NCBI RefSeq assembly: GCF_055900595.2
Contig: NZ_CM148325.1
Direction: 5' to 3' (one strand)
DNA length: 64,000 nucleotides
Part shown: one piece after another, positions 1-63,878 of the stretch
How the letters are laid out: every line of letters begins with the position of its first letter
Position numbering within the stretch: the stretch's first letter is position 1
Notes under the pieces: model-generated
Told to the model about the DNA's origin: nothing
Database searches by the model: none
Seen by the model: only the letters and a program-made list of their open reading frames with translations
Program-made: the position numbers and the translations under genes

Positions 1-126
1 CAGATATCTTGTCGCACCTGTTTTCGCTTCCAGTTGTCGTAACGTCTCGCGCCCGCTCTGTCGCACGAGTTCGACAACCTGCCTCTTAATTTTTTCCCGC
101 TCTTCCTGTGTAAATACTTTTTTCAC
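1..126 (-). CDS. Hypothetical phage protein, partial (3-prime end cut by window edge)
   Basis: GTG at 126 preceded by AGGAGG (131-136, minus strand); open to window edge; translation VKKVFTQEEREKIKRQVVELVRQSG... Confidence 0.35.
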   Translation of the reverse strand, partial: MKKVFTQEEREKIKRQVVELVRQSGRETLRQLEAKTGATRYL

Positions 127-155
127 AAGTCCTCCTGAAAAATCTCCTTCACAAT

Positions 156-821
156 TCATACAAAACCAGCCGCTTTCCGGCGTTCATACTCCTGTTTCAG
201 CAACTCAATTGGCGTTGGTCCCGACGGGCGTTTGGGGGCAGCCAGTTGTCGCCGGACTGGCGGAACGCTGAGGCCCATACCAACATGCTTTGACCATTTC
301 GTCAGTTGCCGTTCTGCAAACCGTTTTAACTCCCCTTCGGTCATCTGGCGTTCAATCCCCTTTGAACGCATCTCGAGGCATATGTGATACAGCACAGGCT
401 GAGACCACGGGTATTTATCGCTTCCGTCGTATCGCCAGGACTCATTGCGCCAGCGTCGGTACTCCTCCATCACAGCCCCCACCGTCAGACCGAATGGATT
501 GGCCCCGCTTTCCGGAATCAGTGCCACAAACTCAGCCAGGTCAGGAGGCCATGTTTCACCCGCCCGGCAGCGGTCCATGCACTGGCGGCAGACCTGCCGG
601 ATTTGCTGCTCAGTCATCGCGCCAATCTGTGCAATCCAGAGCTTCGAAGGTGCGGCCCCGTTCTTCCGGGTCCAGCGGTCCGAATAAACCTCCCCCATGA
701 GTTCCCACAGCTTCCAGGCTGTTTCCGTCGCTGATAAATCCGTTTTCACGTTCCCACTGCTCACGTGCTGCCCGAATTTCCTGAACTGCCCGTGATGCGG
801 TGCCACCTGGTGCTGCTGCAT
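156..821 (-). CDS. Replication protein P-like (DnaB helicase loader family)
   Basis: 221-aa ORF; C-terminal half resembles lambda P (YPW...LY...M motif region); AAGGGGG RBS before ATG at 821; alternative in-frame starts at 698 and 617. Confidence 0.55.
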   Translation of the reverse strand: MQQHQVAPHHGQFRKFGQHVSSGNVKTDLSATETAWKLWELMGEVYSDRWTRKNGAAPSKLWIAQIGAMTEQQIRQVCRQCMDRCRAGETWPPDLAEFVALIPESGANPFGLTVGAVMEEYRRWRNESWRYDGSDKYPWSQPVLYHICLEMRSKGIERQMTEGELKRFAERQLTKWSKHVGMGLSVPPVRRQLAAPKRPSGPTPIELLKQEYERRKAAGFV

Positions 822-1650
822 GGTTCACCCCCTTGCTGACTGGTTTAACCTGCGCCCTGACGTGATTTACGTGACGGGCGAATTTCTGCTCCCACTGAAC
901 CTGTGTGAACACTTTCCCCTCCGCCATCCAGTAATCCCGGAAGGCGGCAAGTTCAGCAGGTGTAAATTCCGGTTCCGGCAAAGCCGCTCCCCACAACGCA
1001 GCCCGCCGTCGAAAATCCAGCGACGGATGCCAGCCATCGGTCATCGGAAATTTTCCGATGGGTTCGCTCAGGCCATCCAGGAATACAGGGGGGGCTGCCT
1101 GTAACGACAAAACTTCCTGCTCACTGATCGGAGCACTCTCGCGTGTGTTATGTGTGGGGTTTAGATCTTTGGGTTCCTTTGGGTTCCGTGATCCGTTTTT
1201 GGGTGTCTTTGATGGAAAATTTGGGTGTTTTTGGTTATTTTCCATGCAGCTAAGAGTTCCGTTTTTGGGTCTGTTTTGTGCTGAAACATAACCATTTTCG
1301 GTACTGTTTTTATTAACAGCACCAATTTTACCCTCCTTTAAAGACTCCCGTTTTTGGGTGTATTCAGGCTCTGCAACGCTTTCTTCTACACCGATAAGTC
1401 GGTACACCACGATTTGCTTTGTTCGGCCTTTTCTCTCACCGGTATCAACAATTAACCCAATCTCCATCAGGTGTCGTAAGCTGTCCTGCACAGTCTTTTT
1501 GTTCAGTTCCGTTACTTCTGCCAGTGCAGATACAGACGGGTATGCACACAAATCGGCACCGCACATATCAGCAAGCCAGGTCAATACTGACTTACTGGAT
1601 GAACTGCCGGTTTTCACCTTTTTAGCCCATCGTAGTGCATCGATGCTCAT
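610..1650 (-). CDS. Replication initiator, O-like: N-terminal HTH, Lys/Asn/Pro-rich linker, C-terminal DnaT-like domain
   Basis: ATG at 1650 with AGGAG RBS; N-terminus MSIDALRWAKKV... HTH-like; C-terminus FTPAELAAFRDYWMAEGK resembles DnaT C-terminal domain; iterons lie inside the linker coding region. Confidence 0.65.
   Translation of the reverse strand: MSIDALRWAKKVKTGSSSSKSVLTWLADMCGADLCAYPSVSALAEVTELNKKTVQDSLRHLMEIGLIVDTGERKGRTKQIVVYRLIGVEESVAEPEYTQKRESLKEGKIGAVNKNSTENGYVSAQNRPKNGTLSCMENNQKHPNFPSKTPKNGSRNPKEPKDLNPTHNTRESAPISEQEVLSLQAAPPVFLDGLSEPIGKFPMTDGWHPSLDFRRRAALWGAALPEPEFTPAELAAFRDYWMAEGKVFTQVQWEQKFARHVNHVRAQVKPVSKGVNHAAAPGGTASRAVQEIRAAREQWERENGFISDGNSLEAVGTHGGGLFGPLDPEERGRTFEALDCTDWRDD
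1160..1365. repeat. Putative phage replication origin iterons (TTTGGGT-core repeats) followed by AT-rich stretch
   Basis: TTTGGGTTCC at 1168-1177 and 1178-1187; CCGTTTTTGGGTGT at 1193-1206 and 1349-1362; CCGTTTTTGGGTCT at 1259-1272; TTTGGGTGTTTTTGG at 1220-1234; AT-rich 1290-1345. Confidence 0.45.
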
Positions 1651-2173
1651 ACGAACTCCTGGCAGACATTTGTTTATCTGCAAAGTAATATTGATATTGC
1701 TGACGATACGCATGCTTGAAAGCAATAGCTTTTTCTATAAGCTCGTCAGTCTCACGTTCCACAACAGATGGATCCGCAAAAAGCAGCCCGGACTCCACCA
1801 CATCGCCATATTCTTTGTTTAACCCGGCGATCATGTACGTAATGCTTTTTCCGTCAGTAATTTCACAATACAACCTGAAATCGCTGATCCGGATAGCCTC
1901 CATAATTGCCGGAATCAGCGCCGTGAATTTTTCCCGCTTATCCCTGGTGTCGATAGCTTTCCAGCGTTCGAATATCTTCACCCGGTTAACGCCCAGCGCC
2001 CGTTGATCAACCTCGCCATCATTAAACGTGACGCGTTGAACATCGATGTTCGGGCGTTCTTTCAGAGCCCAGAATGCTTCCGTGATTAATATCGTCGCCT
2101 GCTCCTGTGTCATTCCTGGTCGGCATACCCAGGCATCCAGAGCCTCACAAACCTGTTCAGGGGTGATTTTCAT
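1622..2173 (-). CDS. YdaT-like protein (Rac prophage ydaT family), downstream of cro-like gene
   Basis: 183-aa ORF; N-terminus MKITPEQVCEALDAW resembles Rac YdaT; overlaps the cro-like stop and the O-like start. Confidence 0.5.
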   Translation of the reverse strand: MKITPEQVCEALDAWVCRPGMTQEQATILITEAFWALKERPNIDVQRVTFNDGEVDQRALGVNRVKIFERWKAIDTRDKREKFTALIPAIMEAIRISDFRLYCEITDGKSITYMIAGLNKEYGDVVESGLLFADPSVVERETDELIEKAIAFKHAYRQQYQYYFADKQMSARSSYEHRCTTMG

Positions 2174-2384
2174 TGTTCAACCGCCCCGCCCGCTTCGTCT
2201 TACGATATTCGTCATAAACTTTGGGGTCGTACTGAAGTTCCCCGCCAGATGCCTCTTGCAGGCGCATCGCGCGACCTTCAGGAACCAGTTCTCCCCATTG
2301 AGAAACAGCAGATGGATCAACACCAGCAGCTTTCGCTACTTTGGCTTTCGTCCCATAAAAATTAATTACGTCTGATTTAAACAT
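2157..2384 (-). CDS. Cro/YdaS-like HTH DNA-binding protein
   Basis: ATG at 2384 with GGAGGGG RBS; small HTH protein (AKVAKAAGVDPSAVSQW) divergent from the repressor gene. Confidence 0.6.
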   Translation of the reverse strand: MFKSDVINFYGTKAKVAKAAGVDPSAVSQWGELVPEGRAMRLQEASGGELQYDPKVYDEYRKTKRAGRLNNENHP

Positions 2385-2461
2385 CACCCCTCCAAAGTTG
2401 AGTTTTCTCAATGGTAATCACTCAAGGAATCTCAAGCCAAGGGTTATTAAGATATCTAAAT
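2385..2461. promoter_or_regulatory. Divergent immunity promoter/operator region (OR-like)
   Basis: 77-bp gap between divergent cro-like and CI-like starts; palindrome TTGAGTTTTCTCAA at 2398-2411 plus repeated CTCAAG half-sites at 2421-2436. Confidence 0.4.
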
Positions 2462-2869
2462 ATGAACGAGAAAACTTTAGGTCAACGAATTAGAGAAAGA
2501 CGCAAACAGGTTGGTTTAAGTCAAAACGATTTAAGCAAAGCTGCTGGCGTATCTGGCTCATCAATTTCACTATGGGAAAGCGACCATACAGCCCCGCGCG
2601 GGCAAAATTTGCATCGCCTGGCTGAGGTATTGCAATGTTCACCAACTTGGATACTGTTTGGTGACGAGGATAAAACACCAGATCCACCAGTTGCACTCAA
2701 CAGCGCCTTAGACTTATCGGAAGATGAGTTGGAGATGTTGCGATTGTATCGCGCACTTCCAAAATCAGAGCAGCAAGCACAAATCAGCGAACTCCGTGCC
2801 CGCGTTGAGAATTTTAATCGCCTATTCACCGAGCTACTAGAAGCTCGCAAACGTAACAAACATCAATAA
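2462..2869 (+). CDS. CI-like phage repressor, XRE-family HTH, no S24 peptidase domain
   Basis: HTH motif GLSQNDLSKAAGVSGSSISLWE; 135 aa; C-terminal helical region only; divergent from cro-like gene. Confidence 0.65.
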   Translation: MNEKTLGQRIRERRKQVGLSQNDLSKAAGVSGSSISLWESDHTAPRGQNLHRLAEVLQCSPTWILFGDEDKTPDPPVALNSALDLSEDELEMLRLYRALPKSEQQAQISELRARVENFNRLFTELLEARKRNKHQ

Positions 2870-2931
2870 CCCCCCTTCACAAATTTTAAAGCCTTACATT
2901 TCAATGTATTGGCTTTATTTTGCATTAAATA

Positions 2932-2982
2932 TTGAGTTTTCTAATCAAAACACTTGACCAATTTTCATGAGAAAACTAAATT
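2932..2982 (+). promoter_or_regulatory. Candidate PL-like promoter with operator (OL-like)
   Basis: TTGAGTTTTCT at 2932-2942 repeats the OR motif; -35 TTGACC 2954-2959, 17-bp spacer, -10 TAAATT 2977-2982; inverted repeat AGTTTTCT (2935-2942) / AGAAAACT (2970-2977). Confidence 0.35.
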
Positions 2983-3063
2983 ACCATCCATCAAGACACC
3001 GCACGGTGTTCTCAGCAAACAGTTCCGCTACCCCGGCGTTAAGGGGAAACAGAGGATTTCTCA

Positions 3064-3420
3064 GTGGGCGAAGTCAAACATCAGAATGGAAGGCATCCCG
3101 GGATCGGCAAAGAAGCAGCAATGGCGCTTTATATTGACATCAGCGCCATTGCCGGACAGGTAAGAATTATCAGAGCGGTAACTAAGCGGTATGTGCCTTT
3201 ACTTCAGAAAGGCTCCGGTGATTACACCGAAGATATTGTCAACGATTTCCTCATCGAATTGCGAGGACTCATCTTCAGTTACAAGGTGACCACAATTTTT
3301 GCAGATGGCTCCCGCGAAACTGTCAGAGCCCTGCGGCTTAAAGGATGTGTCGAAGACTTCGCCACCACATTCTGGGCAAGAAAACTTGATTGTATTCATA
3401 ACCAATTTCCTCTCGGGTAA
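3064..3420 (+). CDS. Hypothetical protein, first ORF downstream of candidate PL (N-gene position); mutually exclusive with the antisense ORF 3199-3399
   Basis: GTG start with AGAGGA RBS 7 nt upstream; 118 aa; orientation fits the rightward early operon; no recognisable family. Confidence 0.35.
   Translation: MGEVKHQNGRHPGIGKEAAMALYIDISAIAGQVRIIRAVTKRYVPLLQKGSGDYTEDIVNDFLIELRGLIFSYKVTTIFADGSRETVRALRLKGCVEDFATTFWARKLDCIHNQFPLG
3199..3399 (-). CDS. Small zinc-ribbon protein (CPECGG...CKNCGH), candidate moron; mutually exclusive with 3064-3420
   Basis: ATG at 3399 with AGAGGA RBS 8 nt upstream; two CxxC pairs 17 residues apart; 66 aa. Confidence 0.4.
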   Translation of the reverse strand: MNTIKFSCPECGGEVFDTSFKPQGSDSFAGAICKNCGHLVTEDESSQFDEEIVDNIFGVITGAFLK

Positions 3421-4016
3421 CAGACCCCTCAGAGGATACCACCTCGCCTGACGTGGTTAAAAGCAGGCACACAACACGAAAGCGCACGGCGAGGTAGCTG
3501 GTTCATATATAGCCTGTCGTTAAATTTTCGTCGACCGTGCGCTTCCGGTTGTGGCACTCCGCGAAATGGCGCGGCGGTAAGCATGGCGGGGTTCCCTTCC
3601 CCTTGAGGACACCGGGTTGTCAGGTTGACCATGCGCCTGAGTGACAACCCCGCTGCAACGCCCTCTGTTATCAATTTTCTGGTGACGTTTGGCGGTATCA
3701 GTTTTACTCCGTGACTGCTCTGCCGCCCTTTTTAAAGTGAATTTTGTGATGTGGTGAATGCGGCTCAGCGCACGCGGAACAGTTAAAACCAAAAACAGAG
3801 TTATGGGTGGATTCTCTGTATCCGGCGTTAATTGTTAACTGGTTAACGTCACCTGGAGGCACCTGGCACCGCATCAACAAAGTTCACTTCGGTGATGAAA
3901 GGTAAGAGAAAATGTTGAATGTAGCTATTGAAAACCAGTACGGGTGGAATTATAGTGCACCTGCACCTCATAAAACGGGTGCCGGGCGTGGAAACCCGAA
4001 AGTTACTCGAGCGCAT

Positions 4017-4039
4017 AACCGCGCCGAAGCGGTTTTTTT
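4017..4039 (+). terminator. Candidate rho-independent terminator upstream of the Rha gene
   Basis: AACCGC-GCCGAA-GCGGTT hairpin followed by TTTTT. Confidence 0.4.
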
Positions 4040-4208
4040 ATGCGTAATGCACAGCCACATTCAGATAATGGTGGGGCGTGCAGGGCAGCTGCAAGGCTGG
4101 CCGGGTTCTCGAGTGACCGGTATTTCCACCCCTGTACGTCTCGCCACCCTTATGGTCGTGGAAAGCCTCGGTGGTGAGTTAATTAACTTAACACTTGAGG
4201 ATGCCATC

Positions 4209-4760
4209 ATGGCTACTACCCTTACCCTTTCTCACCCTGACGTAACCATTGAAAATGGTCGCGCTGTCACTACGTCTATTGCGATCGCAGAATTCTTCGG
4301 CAAGCAGCATCACCATGTTGTTCAAAAAATAGAGGCCCTCGAATGTTCTGAACGCTTTTTAACCAGCAACTTTTCGCGGGTTAAATTCGAGCACCGTGGC
4401 AATACCTACAATGCCTACCAAATCACCAAAAACGGCTTCGTTTTCCTGGTGATGGGCTTCACCGGCAAAAAGGCCGCTGCATTCAAGGAAGCCTACATTG
4501 CCGAGTTCGACCGCATGGAGGAAGAACTGCGCCGGAATAACACCACACCCGCTGACAAAATAATCCCGGGTGATGGCCGCACCCTGGTTATCCGCTTCGA
4601 CGAACACGGCTACATCAAATTCACCGAAACCGTTCCTGATGGCGCACTGGTCTGTACTCTGGATACTTTCCGTTTTTATCTGGAAAAGCAGGGATGGACT
4701 CTCATAAACCGGGGCGCAATTAAAAATATGACCGTCGAGCAGTTGCTGAGTATTAAATAG
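4209..4760 (+). CDS. Phage regulatory protein, Rha family (antirepressor-like)
   Basis: N-terminus TTSIAIAEFFGKQHHHVVQKI matches Rha-domain signature; GAGGA RBS before ATG 4209; in-frame ORF is open upstream to 3912, so the start is uncertain. Confidence 0.6.
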   Translation: MATTLTLSHPDVTIENGRAVTTSIAIAEFFGKQHHHVVQKIEALECSERFLTSNFSRVKFEHRGNTYNAYQITKNGFVFLVMGFTGKKAAAFKEAYIAEFDRMEEELRRNNTTPADKIIPGDGRTLVIRFDEHGYIKFTETVPDGALVCTLDTFRFYLEKQGWTLINRGAIKNMTVEQLLSIK

Positions 4761-4805
4761 TTTTCTGGAATTTCCTTCATATCACAAATTATTAAGGAGA
4801 TTATT

Positions 4806-5027
4806 ATGATTGCTCATCACTTCGGAACCGATGAAATACCACGCCAGTGCGTCACTCCCGGCGATTACGTTATTTACGAAGGCCGGACATATGTTGCATC
4901 GGCAAACAATATCGAAAAGCAAAAACTTTATATCCGTGATTTCACTACAAAAACATGCATTACTGACCGCATGATTAAAGTCTTCCTCGGTCGTGATGGT
5001 TTACCTGTAAAGGCGGAGGCATGGTGA
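4806..5027 (+). CDS. Hypothetical small phage protein
   Basis: ATG preceded by AAGGAG at 7-nt spacing; 73 aa; no recognisable family. Confidence 0.55.
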
Positions 5028-5146
5028 GCTGTAATAAATAACTGACCCAATACGACATTCAGCTTAATAAATACATAAGGGTCGATTCTTATATGCCAGC
5101 AATGGCAGGGATTCGCACAACCTTAAAACAGCAATGAGGTTTATCA

Positions 5147-7600
5147 ATGAGCACTGATAAAGAAACTTTTGCGCTATATTGCGAAGCTAAAAATGACAAA
5201 GTCAGAAAACGCCTTGGGATTAAAGGTGGTTTTTACTGGACTACAGCAAAAAAATTATCTGTTGCCATCTCCCGCTGCATTACCGCAATGGATGATAACG
5301 ATTATGATGAAGACGACTTTAAAAAACCTGTTCGCGTCCATTTGCCCGTTGTTGATGACCTTCCACCGGAAGGCGTGTTTGATACCGAATTCTGTAACCG
5401 GTATGAAAAAGGCGGCGAAGATGGCATCACAATGATATTTATCGCGCCTCCGCCATCCGCGCAGGACAAACCAGCCAGCACTGACAACACCAATGTTAAT
5501 GGCGAAGACATGACTGAGATTGAGGAGAATATGCTTCTGCCGGTTTCAGGTCAGATTCTGCCTGTTCGCTGGCTGGCGCAACACAGCGGCGAAAAACCAG
5601 TAACGCACGTTTCGCGGGATGAACTGCGCTCATTACATAACGCACAGGAAGAAAAACTTCCCGCCGTTACCGCGCTGGCCATCTCAAATAAAGCAGCGCA
5701 ACTCGAACCGCTGGAGATTCGGGATTTGTACAAACTGGTGCGGGACACTGACAAAGTTTTTCCCGCCCCCGTAAATTCAGACCTGGGACTGATGACCTCC
5801 TTCATCGAAGCATACCTGGACGCTGACTACACTGATCGTGGTCTGCTTACAAAAGAGTGGATGAAAGGAAATCGTGTTTCTCGCATCAGTCGCACACCAT
5901 CCGGCGCTAACGCTGGCGGCGGTATTCTTACCGATCGCGGCGAAGGTTTTGTGCATGATAATGCGTCAATGGCATTCGATGTTGCTACAGGAAAACTGGC
6001 TCGTTCGATGGATGTGGATATTTACAACATGCATCCTTCACATACCAGACGTGTTAACGAAATTATCGCAGAAAATGATCCCTGTTTCTCCGTCTTCCTT
6101 AAGGCTTTTCTGAACATGCCAGGCGGGATGGATTATTCCCGCGCCATCGTGGTTGCCTCCGTGAAAGAAGCACCGGTTGGTATAGAGGCTATGCCCCACC
6201 GCGTCACCGAATACCTGAATAAAGTGCTGACCGAAACCGATCATGCCAACCCTGATCCGGAAATCGTGGATATTGCCTGCGGTCGTTCCTCTGCCCCAAT
6301 GCCGCAGCGTGTAACAGAAGAAGGAAAACAGGATGATGAAGAAAAACCGCAACCGTCTGGCGCAATGGCAGATGAACAGCCAACGACTGAAACAGTGGAA
6401 CCGGATACAACTGAACATCATCCGGACACGCAGCCGCTGGATGCTCAGCCGCAGGTGAATTCTGTTGATGCGAAATATCAGAAACTGCGGGCAGAACTCC
6501 ATGAATCCCGGAAAAACATTCCGCCCCAAAATCCTGTCGACGAAGACAAATTGCTGGCAACCTCTGGCGGAGAATTTGCTGAAGGGATTAGCGACCCGAA
6601 TGATCCGAAATGGGTGAAGGGGATTGAAACCCGCGATTCTGTGAACCAGAACCAGCAAGAATCGGAACAGAACGACCAGAAAGCGGAAAAAAACAGCCAA
6701 AATGCGTTACAAAACGAGCCAGAAACGAAACAATCCGAACCAGTAGCGCAACAGGAACCGGAAAAAGTCTGCACCATCTGCGGTCAGAGCGGTGTCGGCA
6801 ACTGTCCTGATTGTGGCGTGGTGATGGGCGACGCAACATACCAGGAAATGTTCGATGAAGATAATCAGCCTGAAGTTCAGGAAAATGATCCAGAGGAAAT
6901 GGAAGGCTCTGCGCATCAGAACAAGGAGAACTCTGGCGGCAATCAGCATCATGCCAGCGATAGTGAAACTGGCGAGACGGCAAATCCCTTAATTAAGATA
7001 ACCAGTCATCACAAATATAAGTCCACAAGCAAAACGTGGTATCACCTGATGATCGACCTTGAAACAATGGGAACCAACACCAATGCACCCATAGTAGTTA
7101 TTGGTGCGGTTTTCTTCGACCCGGAAACAGGGGAAATCGGGCCGGTATTTTATATCGTTATCAGCCTGACTGACGCAATGAATACAGGGGCTGTTCCTGA
7201 TGGTGGCACCATCGAATGGTGGCTGAAGCAGTCCAGCGAAGCCAGAGCTGCCATTTTAACTGACCAGGTAAAAATGAAAGATGCCCTTTTGCGTTTTCGG
7301 GAATTCGTCAATGAACACTCTGATGAAAAATTCGTTCAGGTGTGGGGTAATGGCGCAACGTTCGATAACGCAATTTTGCGCACCTCATACGAACGTCTGG
7401 ACATCCCCTGTCCGTGGCATTACAGCAACGATCGTGATGTACGCACAATCGTTGAGATGGGGAAAATCACAGACTTCAATGCCAGAAGCGTAATTCCATT
7501 CGAAGGCGTGCGCCATAATGCTCTGGATGACGCTCTTCACCAGGCAAAATACGTAACAGCCGCTATACAAAAACTGATCCCGAATCAGGCTGATTTTTAA
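5147..7600 (+). CDS. Exonuclease: RecE (exonuclease VIII) N-terminal-region homolog fused to a C-terminal DnaQ-like DEDDh 3-prime-5-prime exonuclease domain
   Basis: 817 aa; middle region ([19 protein letters not shown]...[43 protein letters not shown]) matches the RecE N-terminal part as recalled; C-terminus has [15 protein letters not shown] and HNALDDA motifs; acidic linker with CTICG-x7-CPDCG zinc-ribbon-like motif. Confidence 0.75.
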
Positions 7601-7664
7601 TGTTCAACCCCGGTCGTCGCCCACCGGCTATAGTGGCGGCGACCATGATTAGCGAACGACGCTC

Positions 7665-7913
7665 ATGGCAAGACTTATTCTGCTCACTGAGTGGGCAAAA
7701 GAGGAATTCAGTGAACCGGTCCCTAGTCCGGGTACGTTAAGTAAATACGCTAAAGCCGGAATGATATTTCCTCTCCCCAAAAAAGTAGGAAGGCACTGGC
7801 GAGTGGATCCACGCGCTCGCTTTGTCGGAATGGTAAACAAGCCGGAGGTGATCGCCACAGATCACCCTGCTTTGAAGAGGATACTGGAAGATGGCGCGCC
7901 CGCGAAAATATAA
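7665..7913 (+). CDS. xis: Excisionase (lambda Xis-like)
   Basis: 82-aa ORF overlapping the int start; LTEW...IFPLPKKVGRHWRV resembles lambda Xis. Confidence 0.55.
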   Translation: MARLILLTEWAKEEFSEPVPSPGTLSKYAKAGMIFPLPKKVGRHWRVDPRARFVGMVNKPEVIATDHPALKRILEDGAPAKI

Positions 7914-9021
7914 AACCGATGTTCCGGGTTTATCTCCGTATTTTGACAAAAGAAATAACAAAGTTTACTGGCGTTACAGGCATCCCATCACAGGTAAAAA
8001 TCATGGACTCGGCAGTATTGACCAGAAACTGGCGGAAACCATTGCAGCAGAAGCGAACAGCCGTCTTGCCAGACAACAAATGGAGCAAATGCTCAGTCTG
8101 CAGGAGAAAATTATTAGTGATACCGGCGGCGCATCAACCGTTTCCATTTTTCTGAATAATTACAGAAAAATTCAACAGGAAAGATATGAGAACGGAGAGA
8201 TCAAACTCAGCACGCTGAAGCAAAAAGCGGCTCCTCTCAGGGTGTTTGATGAACGTTTTGGAGCCAGGCCGCTAGATGCCATAACCGTAAAAGATGTGGT
8301 ATCGGTGCTGGAAGAATACAAGGCAAAGGGACATAACAGAATGGGACAAATTTTCAGGAAGGTATTGATCGATGTTTTCCGGGAGGCTCAACAAACGGGT
8401 GATGTTCCGCCAGGCTTTAACCCGGCTGAATCGGCAAAAAAACCGCAAGTGCGGATATCAAGACAGCGACTGACTTTTGATGAGTGGATGATGATTTATA
8501 ACGCAGCGGAAAAGGATGGTTACTTTTTACAGCGCGGCATGCTGCTGGCACTGATGACGGGCCAGCGTCTTTCGGATATTTGCAAAATGCAGTTTTCGGA
8601 TATCCGGGATGGTTACCTTCATGTCGAACAGCAAAAAACAGGAGCCCGGATAGCCATTCCTCTGGCTCTGCGTTGCGACAAATTAAATCTTACCCTGGGT
8701 GACGTGGTGTCATCCTGTCGTGATTACATCCTTAGTCCGTGGTTATTGCACCATCATCACGCTAAGGGGATGGGTAAGCGCGGCGGGATGGTTAAACCAG
8801 CAACATTAACAGTCGCATTTAAAAAAGCCCGGGATTCTGTGGATTACAACTGGCGTGCTAATGGCACGCCACCCTCTTTCCATGAGCAAAGATCTTTATC
8901 AGAACGATTGTTCAGAGAACAGGGAATTGATACCAAAATTTTGCTGGGCCATTCGAATCAAAAAATGACCGATATTTACAACGACGCACGCGGTAAAGAG
9001 TGGAAAAAACTGGTTATTTGA
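7891..9021 (+). CDS. int: Tyrosine recombinase, lambda-family integrase
   Basis: 376 aa; conserved R...HxxR...Y catalytic region (GQRLSDICKMQFSDI, FHEQRSLSERLF, LLGHSNQKMTDIY) similar to lambda Int. Confidence 0.85.
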   Translation: MARPRKYKTDVPGLSPYFDKRNNKVYWRYRHPITGKNHGLGSIDQKLAETIAAEANSRLARQQMEQMLSLQEKIISDTGGASTVSIFLNNYRKIQQERYENGEIKLSTLKQKAAPLRVFDERFGARPLDAITVKDVVSVLEEYKAKGHNRMGQIFRKVLIDVFREAQQTGDVPPGFNPAESAKKPQVRISRQRLTFDEWMMIYNAAEKDGYFLQRGMLLALMTGQRLSDICKMQFSDIRDGYLHVEQQKTGARIAIPLALRCDKLNLTLGDVVSSCRDYILSPWLLHHHHAKGMGKRGGMVKPATLTVAFKKARDSVDYNWRANGTPPSFHEQRSLSERLFREQGIDTKILLGHSNQKMTDIYNDARGKEWKKLVI

Positions 9022-9061
9022 TAACCAGTTTTGCAGAAGAGTTTTGCAGAGGTTTTGCAGA
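9008..9061. repeat. Candidate attL arm: 10-bp perfect inverted repeat over the int stop plus three tandem GTTTTGCAGA direct repeats
   Basis: AACTGGTTAT-TTG-ATAACCAGTT at 9008-9030; GTTTTGCAGA at 9028-9037, 9041-9050, 9052-9061; lies between int stop (9021) and ompW stop (9067). Confidence 0.3.
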
Positions 9062-9066
9062 GAAAA

Positions 9067-9705
9067 TTAGAAGCGGTATCCGGCAGAGAACATAAACACC
9101 CACGGATCCAGTCGTACCGCGTCTTTCACGGGGGTTCCATTAAATTTATAGCTGGCGGTGGTGTCGATATCCATGTACCAGACTGACATGTTCACCAACC
9201 AGTCACGGTTAATCAGATAATCAACCCCCACCTGCCCGGCAGCTCCCCAGGAGTCTTTCAGACTGAGATCGGAAAGTCCCGCCTCTTTGCCATGATCGTT
9301 GAATCCATTATCAAAGAAGGTGGTGTAGTTAATACCTGCCCCAACGTAAGGACGGAATTTGCTGCTGGCATCACCAAAATACCACTGCGCCATCAGTGTT
9401 GGCGGCAGATGATGAACGGTTGCAATATCGCCGGTCGCCCGGGTGCCGATTTTATGGCGGAACGGCGTCGCTGCCAGCAATTCCACACCAATGTTATCGG
9501 TCGCCATATAAGTAAACGTCAGGCCCAGTTGCGTGTTATTGGTCACGCTGAATCCACCCAGACTTCCTAACGTACCACCAGCACCTTCTGTTGGACGTAC
9601 GGTTGCAGAACCTGCACGCATAAAAAATTCGCCTGCTTCATGCGCAAAGGCACTGCCAGAGAGAAGAGTTGTTACTGCCAAAGCCGCCACTGTTAACTTT
9701 TTCAT
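9067..9705 (-). CDS. ompW: Outer membrane protein W
   Basis: 212-aa product from MKKLTVAALAVTTLLSGSAFA signal peptide; GGAG RBS before ATG 9705. Confidence 0.9.
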   Translation of the reverse strand: MKKLTVAALAVTTLLSGSAFAHEAGEFFMRAGSATVRPTEGAGGTLGSLGGFSVTNNTQLGLTFTYMATDNIGVELLAATPFRHKIGTRATGDIATVHHLPPTLMAQWYFGDASSKFRPYVGAGINYTTFFDNGFNDHGKEAGLSDLSLKDSWGAAGQVGVDYLINRDWLVNMSVWYMDIDTTASYKFNGTPVKDAVRLDPWVFMFSAGYRF

Positions 9706-9808
9706 ATCCGCTCCGTCGTTATGGTTATAAAAACGTGACGAATATACCCACATTGGAGTAACAAATGATCCTACATAGATCACATTACATATGATAATTC
9801 ACCCTTTA

Positions 9809-9822
9809 TTGATCTGGATTAA
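9809..9822. promoter_or_regulatory. Candidate FNR-type site upstream of ompW
   Basis: TTGAT-CTGG-ATTAA, about 110 bp upstream of the ompW start. Confidence 0.3.
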
Positions 9823-10061
9823 TTTAGAAGTTGCACTGGAAATCCTGGTTAATGTGATTTAAATCAATTTTTAAATATTTTCGCTACGCAAATATTAACT
9901 CGCTCGCCACTTGCAGCGGTTTGCCCACGCCTGAAGGCCAGCAATTACCTCCGCTTTACAAAGATATGCTTTTCCATACAAGACCTGATGCTGCCACCCG
10001 AGGCTTAACCAGGGTACAATTGCCCGCTAATTAACACCTGCATAAAACTCAAGGAGAGTGC

Positions 10062-10805
10062 ATGTCTATCACGGCGCAGTCCGTATACCGTGACACCGGA
10101 AATTTCTTCCGTAATCAATTTATGACCATTCTGTTGGTATCGTTGCTATGTGCGTTTATCACAGTGGTGTTAGGGCATGTTTTCTCACCCAGTGATGCAC
10201 AGCTTGCACAGCTCAATGACGGCGTGCCCGTTAGCGGCAGTAGTGGGTTGTTCGACCTGGTGCAGAATATGTCACCGGAACAGCAACAAATTTTGCTGCA
10301 GGCTTCAGCGGCGTCCACTTTTTCAGGATTAATCGGTAACGCCATTCTCGCCGGAGGCGTAATATTAATTATCCAGCTGGTGTCTGCGGGTCAGAGAGTC
10401 AGTGCGCTTCGAGCTATTGGTGCCAGTGCGCCGATATTGCCAAAGTTATTTATTCTGATTTTTCTGACTACCCTTTTAGTACAGATTGGCATCATGCTGG
10501 TGGTCGTTCCGGGAATTATCATGGCCATTTTACTGGCTCTGGCACCGGTGATGTTGGTACAGGACAAAATGGGCATTTTTGCCTCGATGCGCAGCAGTAT
10601 GCGGCTGACATGGGCGAATATGCGTCTGGTGGCACCCGCGGTACTGAGCTTGTTGCTGGCAAAAACACTATTGCTACTTTTTGCCTCTTCTTTTGCCGCA
10701 TTAACCCCGGAAATTGGTGCCGTACTGGCGAACACCTTGAGCAATCTGATTTCAGCCGTACTGCTCATCTATCTGTTCCGCCTGTATATGTTGATTCGCC
10801 AATAA
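10062..10805 (+). CDS. yciC: Inner membrane protein YciC (UPF0259)
   Basis: 247-aa ORF, multi-pass membrane protein matching E. coli YciC. Confidence 0.9.
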
Positions 10806-10834
10806 CCTTAAGCATTTGATTACGGAATCGTAAA

Positions 10835-11374
10835 ATGAAGCAGTTTCTTGATTTTTTACCGCTGGTTGTTTTTTTCGCGTTTTACAAGATTTATGACATC
10901 TATGCGGCTACTGCGGCGCTGATCGTCGCCACGGCGATTGTGCTTATATATAGCTGGGTTCGCTTTCGTAAGGTTGAGAAGATGGCCCTGATCACTTTTG
11001 TTCTGGTGGTCGTCTTCGGTGGCTTGACGCTGTTCTTCCACAATGATGAGTTTATTAAATGGAAGGTTACTGTCATTTATGCCCTGTTTGCAGGTGCCCT
11101 GTTAGTCAGCCAATGGGTGATGAAAAAGCCGCTAATTCAGCGGATGCTGGGTAAAGAACTCACGCTGCCGCAACCGGTATGGTCGAAGCTGAATCTGGCC
11201 TGGGCTGTTTTCTTTATCCTTTGCGGTCTGGCAAACATCTACATCGCATTCTGGCTGCCGCAAAATATTTGGGTCAACTTTAAAGTGTTTGGCCTGACCG
11301 CTCTTACCTTAATCTTCACATTGTTAAGCGGTATCTATATCTACCGCCACATGCCGCAGGAAGATAAATCCTAA
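10835..11374 (+). CDS. yciB: Intracellular septation protein A (YciB)
   Basis: 179-aa membrane protein matching E. coli YciB. Confidence 0.9.
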
Positions 11375-11478
11375 CCAGACTGCCAGTCCTTCGGGGCTGG
11401 CACTGTATCTCCTCTGTTCTCCTCAGGAAAATCATAGTAGCATCGCGCCTGTGATTTTCCTTTTAAGTCGGTTTTACC

Positions 11479-11877
11479 ATGTCTACAACACATAACGTCC
11501 CTCAGGGCGATCTTGTTTTACGTACTTTAGCCATGCCCGCCGATACCAATGCCAATGGTGACATCTTTGGTGGTTGGTTAATGTCACAAATGGATATTGG
11601 CGGCGCTATTCTGGCGAAAGAAATTGCGCACGGTCGCGTAGTGACCGTGCGGGTTGAAGGAATGACTTTCTTACGACCGGTTGCGGTCGGCGATGTGGTG
11701 TGCTGCTATGCACGCTGTGTCCAGAAAGGGACGACATCGGTCAGCATTAATATTGAAGTGTGGGTGAAAAAAGTCGCGTCTGAACCCATCGGGCAACGCT
11801 ATAAAGCGACAGAAGCATTATTTAAGTATGTCGCGGTTGATCCTGAAGGAAAACCTCGCGCCTTACCTGTTGAGTAA
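11479..11877 (+). CDS. yciA: Acyl-CoA thioester hydrolase YciA
   Basis: 132-aa hotdog-fold thioesterase matching E. coli YciA. Confidence 0.9.
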   Translation: MSTTHNVPQGDLVLRTLAMPADTNANGDIFGGWLMSQMDIGGAILAKEIAHGRVVTVRVEGMTFLRPVAVGDVVCCYARCVQKGTTSVSINIEVWVKKVASEPIGQRYKATEALFKYVAVDPEGKPRALPVE

Positions 11878-11916
11878 TAGTCAAAAGCCTCCGGTCGGAG
11901 GCTTTTGACTTTCTGC

Positions 11917-12636
11917 TTACTGAATTTCGGTGGTGCCGTTAATTTTAAACAGGATATTCACCACAATCCCACTGCCTGGCTTACCCGGCTCATAACGCCA
12001 TCTGCGCATCGCATTTTTCACCTCACGCTCAAACATGTTCGCAGGCTTGGCTGAGAGGATTTGCACGTTATCCACGCGACCATCCGGCGTGACATCAAAT
12101 TTAACTTTAACCTGCCCTTCAATGCGCAATGCCTGTGCTCGTGCCGGATACTGCGGCTGATTGCGACTTAATGCGCGTGGTCCTGAAGCCACACTTGTAA
12201 CCGGCTTGCTGGTTGCAGCCGTCGCCGTACTTGATGTCGGGCGCGCGGGTGCCGTATTTTCAAACGGTGATGCCGGACGCGATTCTACGGGTTTGACATC
12301 GCGTTTTGGCTGCTCCTGTACCTTTTTCACCGGCTTCGGTTTTGGCTTAGGTTTCGGCTTAGGCTTTTCAATGACCACCGGTGCTTCTTTTGGCGGTTCA
12401 GGGATCGGCTCAGGTTCCGGTTCTGGCTCTACCACCGGCTCCGGTGGCGGCTGAACGGCTTGTGGCGGTTCGAGATCCGCAGGCGCAACCATCGTGACAG
12501 AAATTGGCTGCGCAGGCGCAGGTAGTTCAATAACCTGATGTACCGAGGTATAGAGCAGACCCGCCACAACAGCACCATGAATGCAGACCGAAAGTAACGT
12601 CGGCCAGGGGAAGCGGCGAGGTAAATCAAGGGTCAT
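11917..12636 (-). CDS. tonB: TonB energy transducer
   Basis: 239 aa from [17 protein letters not shown]; Pro-Glu/Pro-Lys repeat linker. Confidence 0.9.
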
Positions 12637-12859
12637 TGAAGTCATAATCATTTCAGTAGAAAAACCAGGCCTCGATTTTAAATGCAAATAGCAATCATAT
12701 TCAATAAGGCAAGACGATCAGGATCAGTGAAAATGTCATTTTTGGCGTAATTGACCTTACTTTATGCATGGTCTTAACAAAGACATCATCTTTCCGTTGC
12801 AGATCTTCGCCCTTTCAAATAACGTACTTTACAACTTTCCCGAACAAGGAGTTGTGCCC

Positions 12860-13156
12860 GTGTTGTATGTTATTTACGCTCAAGACAAAGCTGATAGCCT
12901 CGAAAAACGCCTTTCCGTTCGTCCGGCACATTTAGCACGTTTACAGTTACTGCATGATGAAGGTCGATTGTTGACCGCCGGTCCAATGCCAGCAGTAGAC
13001 AGTAACGATCCAGGGGCTGCGGGATTTACTGGCTCAACCGTTATTGCTGAATTTGAATCGCTGGAAGCAGCTCAGGCCTGGGCCGATGCTGACCCGTACG
13101 TAGCGGCAGGAGTCTATGAACACGTTTCAGTGAAACCATTTAAGAAAGTGTTCTGA
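12860..13156 (+). CDS. yciI: YciI-like protein
   Basis: 98-aa product from GTG 12860 with AAGGAG RBS. Confidence 0.8.
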
Positions 13157-13456
13157 ATAGAGATTCAATATTTAAGGGCACGGTTTTAGCAACCGTGTTC
13201 TAGTTTGGCCTTTCCTTATAGGTCGGTCAGTGCATTCACCCCCACAAGCAGATAATAACTTTATCTGTATTTCTTTATATGATGTGAGCATATTCAGGAA
13301 AAATGCCCTTTCCTGACGCAGAGTTGCTCACTCAAAACCTTTGATTACTTCAGATAAAGTCATCTACTATTGTTTAACACATTCACGCGCTGCATGTATG
13401 TTCAGAAAATGTGCACGTTGAGATAATTAAACAAAATTGTGGTTACAGAGGTATCA

Positions 13457-29016: not shown

Positions 29017-29042
29017 TCTTTTGTAGATGACACTTGCTTAAA

Positions 29043-29066
29043 ATCCCGCCATTGGCGGGATTTTTT
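29043..29066 (+). terminator. hns rho-independent terminator
   Basis: ATCCCGCC-ATT-GGCGGGAT hairpin followed by TTTTTT. Confidence 0.7.
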
Positions 29067-63795: not shown

Positions 63796-63854
63796 TTAAT
63801 TTGTTGTCTCATGAGGTTTCGCTAAATCTCATGAAGAGCGCAAAAGTATATAAA

Positions 63855-63878
63855 ATCCACGCAATTGCGTGGATTTTT
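63855..63878 (+). terminator. ychF rho-independent terminator
   Basis: ATCCACGC-AATT-GCGTGGAT hairpin followed by TTTT. Confidence 0.65.

Follow-up and report, generated by a model that had tools for sequence, protein, structure and literature searches.

At the right-hand border of a lambdoid prophage in the stretch of DNA analysed here (64,000 nucleotides of contig NZ_CM148325.1, hereafter the window), a perfect palindrome and three short tandem repeats occupy the narrow interval between the phage integrase gene int and the host gene ompW. This raises the question of what these elements are and where the phage DNA ends. An earlier note on the same sequence had read them as a candidate attL resembling that of phage lambda. 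Comparison with related prophages, with unoccupied chromosomes and with phage 21 indicates that the three GTTTTGCAGA repeats are very probably integrase arm-type binding sites in an att site of the textbook type. The region 9006-9185 can, with considerable confidence, be regarded as the attL (B-O-P') of a prophage of the PPompW group, in which the repeats represent the P' arm-type sites and the palindrome is likely to be a terminator.

The prophage locus and its integrase

The int gene codes for a heterobivalent tyrosine integrase (Int), in which a Pfam search identified the lambda Arm-DNA-binding domain (PF09003, residues 2-71, E 1.6e-21), a central domain (PF22022) and the catalytic domain (PF00589, E 9e-16). 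The R/K/H-x-x-R/H/Y catalytic positions are kept when the protein is aligned with the integrases of phage 21, its closest characterised relative (49.5% identity), and lambda (36% identity). The start of int is overlapped by xis (Table 1); a search of the NCBIfam models returned no match for Xis and was uninformative for Int. To the left of these genes lambdoid prophage DNA extends beyond the window edge, and ompW, yciC, yciB, yciA and tonB follow to the right of int.

The prophage belongs to the published PPompW group, which is common in E. coli and inserted at the 3' end of ompW. Between positions 7600 and 9200 the window shares 92.8% DNA identity with the PPompW prophages, and the Int proteins are 96.8% identical. 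int and ompW are contiguous in 1714 of the 5426 complete E. coli genomes, and a spread sample of the remaining records, taken as prophage-free, matches the window from 9065 onward only. Strain record NZ_CP033635 is a closer relative, with 97.9% identity to the window over positions 3562-13172. A yciI-kch prophage remnant is present in NZ_CP033635 and absent from the window.

Table 1. Features of the int-ompW region, with positions in the window
Feature	Position	Strand	Basis
xis (excisionase), 82 aa, overlaps the int start	7665..7913	+	ORF; orthologue annotated as excisionase in NZ_CP033635 and LC567822
int, heterobivalent tyrosine integrase, 376 aa	7891..9021	+	ORF, Pfam
Perfect palindrome over the int stop, 12-nt arms, 3-nt loop	9006..9032	.	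Arms at 9006-9017 and 9021-9032
Candidate arm-type Int site P'3 (most core-distal), GTTTTGCAGA	9028..9037	+	Exact-match search, attL alignment, IMG/VR comparison
Candidate arm-type Int site P'2, GTTTTGCAGA	9041..9050	+	Exact-match search, attL alignment, IMG/VR comparison
Candidate arm-type Int site P'1 (most core-proximal), GTTTTGCAGA	9052..9061	+	Exact-match search, attL alignment, IMG/VR comparison
121-bp imperfect att duplication of PPompW prophages (ompW 3' end), attL copy	9065..9185	.	LC567822 repeat_region mapped to the window
Phage-borne replacement ompW 3' end, last ~32 codons, frame kept	9067..9163	-	Alignments, translations
ompW, hybrid gene (host 5' part, phage 3' end)	9067..9705	-	ORF, orthologue annotation
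Common core (crossover region), TCGATATCCATGTACCA(C/G)ACTG	9164..9185	.	attL/attR/attB alignment

Sequence anatomy of the int-ompW interval

The sequence at 9006-9066 reads AAAACTGGTTAT-TTG-ATAACCAGTTTTGCAGAAGAGTTTTGCAGAGGTTTTGCAGAGAAAA. It contains three exact copies of GTTTTGCAGA with start-to-start distances of 13 and then 11, no further copy of which occurs in the window, and a search of both window strands with the 9-mer GTTTTGCAG recovers the same three sites only. In some lineages the P'1 copy instead takes the form ATTTTGCAGA. The tandem triple described in the earlier note is thus exact and unique in the window, and the ORF coordinates likewise bear out the 45 bp it had given for the interval from the int stop (9021) to the minus-strand ompW stop (9067-9069). 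The inverted repeat with its 3-bp spacer is perfect, as had been claimed, but its arms comprise 12 rather than 10 nt; it overlaps the TGA stop codon of int (9019-9021). Both the palindrome and the repeat triple are far beyond chance expectation: four perfect hairpins with a stem of at least 12 bp, corresponding to two distinct palindromes, are listed for the 64 kb, whereas 30 block shuffles gave 0.0.

Position of the integration point

The core was mapped in NZ_CP033635, since the window ends without its own attR. At the far junction of this relative the prophage abuts a 126-bp K-12-type ompW 3' fragment beside yciE, and a 22-bp block, TCGATATCCATGTACCACACTG, is identical in its attL, its attR and the attB of K-12. 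The edges of this core are marked by a phage-specific base at the left in attL and at the right in attR. None of the attR and attB copies examined deviates from GGTATCGATATCCATGTACCA, and neither do five of the seven attL copies; its left edge is GGTG in the attL of both the window and NZ_CP033635. Inverted hexamers (GTGGTA-N12-TACCAC) flank the core and may serve as core-type half-sites for Int.

The window carries ordinary ompW sequence from ~9164 onward, and between 9065 and ~9163 shares ~75-80% identity with the 3' end of native ompW, with approximately one base in four differing. At attL this diverged, phage-borne ompW end preserves the reading frame, and the native end that it displaces is kept at attR. 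The comparison of attL, attR and attB therefore indicates that the phage integrates within ompW and supplies a replacement for its last ~40 codons, with the 45-bp gap between int and ompW consisting of phage DNA rather than forming the phage/host boundary. The crossover point, as judged from these alignments, lies ~100 bp beyond the repeats and within ompW, so that the site appears to be an ordinary att site. A 121-bp attL/R within ompW, and PCR products of attP on PPompW excision, have been reported by Nakamura et al. 2021 (PMC8112680).

The empty ompW-yciE site of K-12 contains neither the palindrome nor the repeats, and only a G+C-rich hairpin is found between the two genes. An origin of the repeats as host sequence, which the earlier note had named as the observation that would count against it, can be ruled out, as they are lacking at this site and the sampled prophage-free records match the window only from 9065 onward. 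The assignment of the region as the int-proximal prophage junction (attL in lambda nomenclature) is upheld by both the attB comparison and the far-junction alignment, but the placement of the junction in the 45-bp gap is not, the shared core being located inside ompW. When the far junction is inspected for the elements of the near one, as had been proposed, a fourth copy of the repeat and the shared core are found, but not the palindrome.

The P arm and the reconstructed attP

On the P arm, at attR, the fourth exact copy of GTTTTGCAGA is situated at +141..+150 in the same orientation, and is the sole copy within 2 kb. In the reconstructed attP the three copies accordingly occupy -136..-103 from the core start, with the fourth 277 bp from this P' cluster at a conserved position on the opposite arm, and the arm motif is absent from both the core itself and the K-12 attB. 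The whole arrangement is also present in nature, where two tandem prophages meet in a contiguous attP-like junction (L019). In an alignment of three P-arm lineages the homology extends from the core outward and ends exactly at GTTTTGCAG, which places the outer edge of the functional attP at this motif. A strict IHF consensus, AATCAGGCAGTTA (AATCAATCAGTTA in another lineage), occurs 18 bp core-proximal of the P-arm copy. Between the repeats and the core, the P' arm yielded no match to the strict IHF consensus, and a conserved, inverted P2-like site was likewise not found on the P arm. Two near-matches to the latter, GTTTTTCAGC and ATTTTGAGAT, are weak and non-conserved, and a second P-arm site is therefore not claimed. 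The P' sites are ~114-147 bp from the core centre, and a 15-bp indel between them and the core in two lineages alters the helical phasing.

Conservation of the repeats and their linkage to Int

Among seven aligned attL lineages all three 10-mers are invariant, while the spacers between them vary (AGA/GGG) and the adjoining ompW' codons are represented by at least three alleles, one of which includes a 15-nt indel. A GTTTTGCAG(A/G) triple is also located directly 3' of int in IMG/VR loci coding for Ints of 52-68% identity. Three of the four such lineages examined adjoin different host-gene ends, and the motif thus travels with the integrase and not with the target. The lineages with the GTTTTGCAG motif share the N-domain signature (I/V)PGLS in Int, aside from one (L072) with VQGLF, and the signature IPNLY occurs in lineages with GTTTTGGGGAA (GGGGAA) or TTTTGATAA (GATAA) repeats, the repeat motifs differing in the phage 21 and Klebsiella integrase lineages. 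At one locus with a PGLS-signature Int (L060), no repeats are present within 170 nt downstream. Approximately 15 of the 80 IMG/VR loci were usable for these comparisons, as most are cut at the int stop.

Comparison with known att sites

The same order of elements is observed in phage 21, where xis and int are followed by three copies of GTTTTGGGGAA directly after the int stop, a replacement 3' end of the target gene and the core. According to the GenBank annotation of OL657228, from which the phage 21 subsites were taken, attP subsites 'P1P2P3, consensus YYTTCCCCAAAA' are found right after int, followed by a terminator, the icd 3' pseudo-end and the core. On the P arm of phage 21 one arm-type copy is likewise present, 18 bp outward of an IHF consensus, the same spacing as here. 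Its P' repeats, spaced by 13 and 12, have the GTTTTG prefix in common with those of the window, but the motif core is GGG in phage 21 and CAG here. The systems further differ in their target, which is icd for phage 21 and e14 and ompW for the present prophage, and in the length of the P' arm (225-260 bp in phage 21, ~100-135 bp here). A separate G+C-rich terminator is located between the repeats and the icd end in phage 21, whereas the sole hairpin here is on the int side of the repeats, over the int stop.

The likeness to lambda attL proposed in the earlier note holds for the three P' sites beside int, although phage 21, with its icd 3' end, provides a closer model. Lambda also has a heterobivalent Int with the PF09003 domain, xis upstream of int and three tandem P' sites adjoining int, and its P1 site has the same orientation as the P' sites, ~130-140 bp from the core with the H1 IHF site just inside. 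By contrast, the arm motif of lambda, C/AAGTCACTAT, is unrelated to GTTTTGCAGA, its P' sites are ~50-85 bp from the core and its attB is intergenic, and no counterpart of the inverted P2 site or of the H' IHF site of lambda was found here. Judged by sequence, the site falls within the lambda/phage 21 class of heterobivalent-integrase att sites, with the domain architecture of Int, the arm motif on both arms of attP, the shared core and the linkage of the motif to the integrase lineage all seen at that level; of the accessory elements, xis and a single strict IHF consensus, on the P arm, are observed.

The PPompW prophages of STEC/EPEC (LC567818-LC567841) have the same integration site and the same 121-bp att duplication, and their records contain the palindrome and the three repeats; the phage-borne ompW allele differs from that of the window. 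The PPompW group and its 121-bp att have thus already been published. The paper describing them (PMC8112680) defines the att duplication and shows excision, and the term 'arm-type' is absent from it. Among the papers listed in a literature search with the motif string, all on unrelated subjects, no description of the GTTTTGCAG arm motif was found. The motif can be derived directly from the homology with phage 21.

Function of the repeats

In the proposed mechanism, the N-terminal arm-binding domain of Int would bind the three GTTTTGCAGA repeats of the P' arm, while its C-terminal domains would act ~100-150 bp away on the core. The P arm would provide the same motif once, ~130-140 bp from the core and beside the IHF consensus site, which would allow Int bound at the arms to reach the core within a bent intasome, in the manner of lambda and phage 21. 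As the crossover occurs inside the gene, the phage carries its own ompW end; the last ~40 codons, in the phage version, would be borne between the core and the arm sites, and ompW would remain intact in the lysogen. The palindrome would have no part in the recombination chemistry and would instead end transcription of both int and ompW, which converge there. The repeats are as expected for P' arm-type sites in their position and number, in their conservation and in their linkage to Int.

It is improbable that the repeats are instead bound by a protein other than Int, such as Xis, a host nucleoid protein or a regulator of int or ompW, or that they act as RNA elements. They do fall within the ompW 3' UTR, right after the ompW stop codon, and repeats 2 and 3 are capable of forming a weak RNA hairpin, but an Rfam scan of 8800-9400 gave no match beyond a chance snoRNA hit far below the threshold. 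The Xis sites of lambda are likewise tandem direct repeats. Sites of that type are, however, restricted to the P arm, whereas the copies here are clustered beside int, on the P' arm, and only one is found on the P arm; this distribution is that of Int arm sites and therefore argues against Xis. The motif also stays with Int where the neighbouring host gene is not ompW, co-varies with the Int N-domain signature and is homologous to phage 21 repeats that are annotated as attP subsites. Short tandem repeats can also arise by slippage, and the arm-site function is a prediction from sequence; a functionless tandem duplication carried along with the phage end is nevertheless very improbable, given that the 10-mers are invariant while their spacers and flanks vary, that the motif is retained beside Ints of as little as 52% identity and that a separate fourth copy occupies a conserved position on the other arm.

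The palindrome, striking in itself, located at the end of int and abutting the repeats, might also be taken for the att core, with the 45-bp gap as the phage/host boundary and ompW wholly of host origin. The cores of tyrosine recombinases are indeed imperfect inverted repeats. Both palindrome arms are, however, missing from attB and from the 2 kb around the far junction, and the divergence of 9065-9163 from native ompW, together with the presence of the native version of this stretch at attR, is at odds with an ompW of host sequence only. The published att is, moreover, a 121-bp ompW duplication (LC567822; PMC8112680). This reading has next to no probability and is refuted by the attL/attR/attB comparison.

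With the repeats read as P' arm-type sites, the analysis provides an att map for the PPompW group that comprises the core, the candidate P' and P arm-type sites, the IHF consensus and a probable terminator. Prophages of this type are found at ompW in ~30% of complete E. coli genomes and carry T3SS effectors in STEC/EPEC. With this map prophage boundaries can be placed correctly, many IMG/VR contigs stopping at the int stop and so missing the ~165 bp up to the outer end of the core, and it may aid the design of ompW-site integration vectors and the prediction, from the N-domain of Int, of which arm motif is recognised (GTTTTG-CAG, -GGG and -ATA variants). No concept is changed, as the mechanism would be the textbook one of lambda and phage 21.

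The palindrome over the int stop codon

The folded RNA of the palindrome has a predicted energy of -12.6 kcal/mol (z -3.0) on the plus strand, where U4 follows, and of -12.1 kcal/mol (z -5.3) on the minus strand, where it is succeeded by U6. One compensatory double change, GTTAT/ATAAC versus GTCAT/ATGAC, is observed across the attL lineages; the left arm is limited by the last Int codons and the right arm follows the left. The form of the element, an A-run, a stem and a T-run, is shared with a second palindrome in the window (11879-11910) that fills the 39-bp gap between the convergent yciA and tonB genes and is known as a bidirectional intrinsic terminator. The putative int/ompW terminator differs from the latter in its A+T-rich stem over a coding stop. 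The native downstream hairpin of ompW is left at attR upon integration.

These features are taken, with moderate confidence, to mark a bidirectional intrinsic terminator shared by int and ompW, which are convergent. The alternative of an operator bound by a dimeric protein, which might for example control read-through of int or assembly of the intasome, is unlikely. Such an operator would be consistent with a perfect DNA palindrome, the symmetry-preserving compensatory change fitting protein dimers as well as RNA stems, and with a stem that includes only 3 G-C pairs among its 12 and was not called by a simple consensus terminator scan. The format shared with the yciA-tonB palindrome and the position between convergent genes nonetheless argue against an operator, for which there is no evident candidate binding protein. 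Further evidence against it comes from IMG/VR lineages without the stop-codon palindrome, which have a separate hairpin after the repeats, with a T8 run that faces the host gene in L071/L072 and is in the opposite direction in L058/L059. In phage 21 and two Klebsiella relatives a hairpin is likewise located after the repeats, between them and the gene end, with its T-run toward the replaced host gene.

The OmpW segment replaced by the phage

Translation of the hybrid genes shows that the replacement changes the OmpW segment between the invariant ...WYMDIDT and RLDPWVFMFSAGYRF, for which at least six alleles are found. The segment reads TANYKLGGAQQHDSV in native K-12 OmpW, TASYKFNGTPVKDAV in the window and TAKYKSGVTTVKDSV in PPompW (O26/O145), is 5 residues longer in 88-3493 and A27, and is represented by two further alleles in the IMG/VR loci. 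Following the topology of the 8-stranded outer-membrane barrel, the variable segment presumably corresponds to the last extracellular loop, and the hypervariability is thus probably that of the last surface loop. OmpW is the receptor for colicin S4 in E. coli. An OmpW-dependent phage of Serratia has also been reported (PMC10132071). It is conceivable, if doubtful, that the att arrangement is, beyond keeping ompW intact, a lysogenic-conversion device by which each PPompW-type phage gives OmpW a loop sequence of its own. If so, the loop alleles could change how OmpW-dependent phages or colicin S4 recognise the protein, and the unusually long P' arm, with its arm sites beyond the gene end, and the terminator hairpin at the stop codon could represent adaptations to the presence of an expressed gene segment inside attP.

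Prophage-borne variation at the 3' end of ompW

Integration of the PPompW-type lambdoid prophage replaces the last ~40 codons of ompW (window 9067-9190, minus strand). The variable segment of OmpW is bounded by the invariant blocks WYMDIDT and RLDPWVFMFSAGYRF, is predicted to form the last extracellular loop and, with the window and the retrieved loci L004, L011-L014, L020 and L049 considered, occurs as at least six alleles, one of which is longer by five residues. OmpW is a known receptor for phage and colicin, and the exchange of the ompW 3' end may represent lysogenic conversion of an OmpW surface loop.

Within the phage-borne ompW codons, the attL sites of strains 88-3493 and A27 (L011 and L012) carry a 15-nt insertion, which places the P' arm sites about 1.4 helical turns farther from the crossover core. 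This reflects either relaxed phasing in the PPompW att family or prophages that are defective in excision.

Integrase and junction variants in other loci

The integrase encoded on IMG/VR contig 3300026487_000250 (L060) shares 58% identity with that of the window and has the PGLS N-domain signature. No GTTTTGCAG repeats, the predicted P' arm-type sites, occur at 2329-2500, within 170 nt of its int stop codon, where another long palindrome, TCTGCATTCAG...CTGAATGCAGA, is found in their place. L060 is an exception among the integrases with the PGLS signature.

The int gene of the window is present twice on IMG/VR contig 2908567220_000002 (97.9 kb; L019 and L021), which also includes an internal attP-like junction comprising the P' arm, core and P arm; together, these sequence features indicate tandem prophages of the PPompW type. 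In strain KE54 (NZ_CP141079), a junction of the attR type, which shares this P arm, adjoins a different, more diverged ompW-like fragment located directly beside trpA, and yciE, yciF and yciG are absent from that position. This arrangement could be a secondary site or the result of a deletion.

Other features of the region

In the close relative NZ_CP033635 (L002, 24605-28985), a prophage remnant is located between yciI and kch. It comprises fragments of an SOS peptidase, a tail fibre and an Arm-binding int, together with an LTA synthase, DinI and IS3. This remnant is missing from the window, where the corresponding joint is at 13139-13172. Three further palindromes in the window share the format of that between int and ompW, and the middle of the large ORF upstream of xis encodes a long acidic stretch rich in Gln and Glu (see table).

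Additional palindromes and large ORF in the window
Feature	Position	Context	Annotation
817-aa ORF	5147-7600	upstream of xis	orthologue annotated 'exonuclease'
Perfect A-run/stem/T-run palindrome	11879-11910	between the convergent genes yciA and tonB, which are 39 bp apart	
Perfect A-run/stem/T-run palindrome	29040-29064		
Perfect A-run/stem/T-run palindrome	63852-63877
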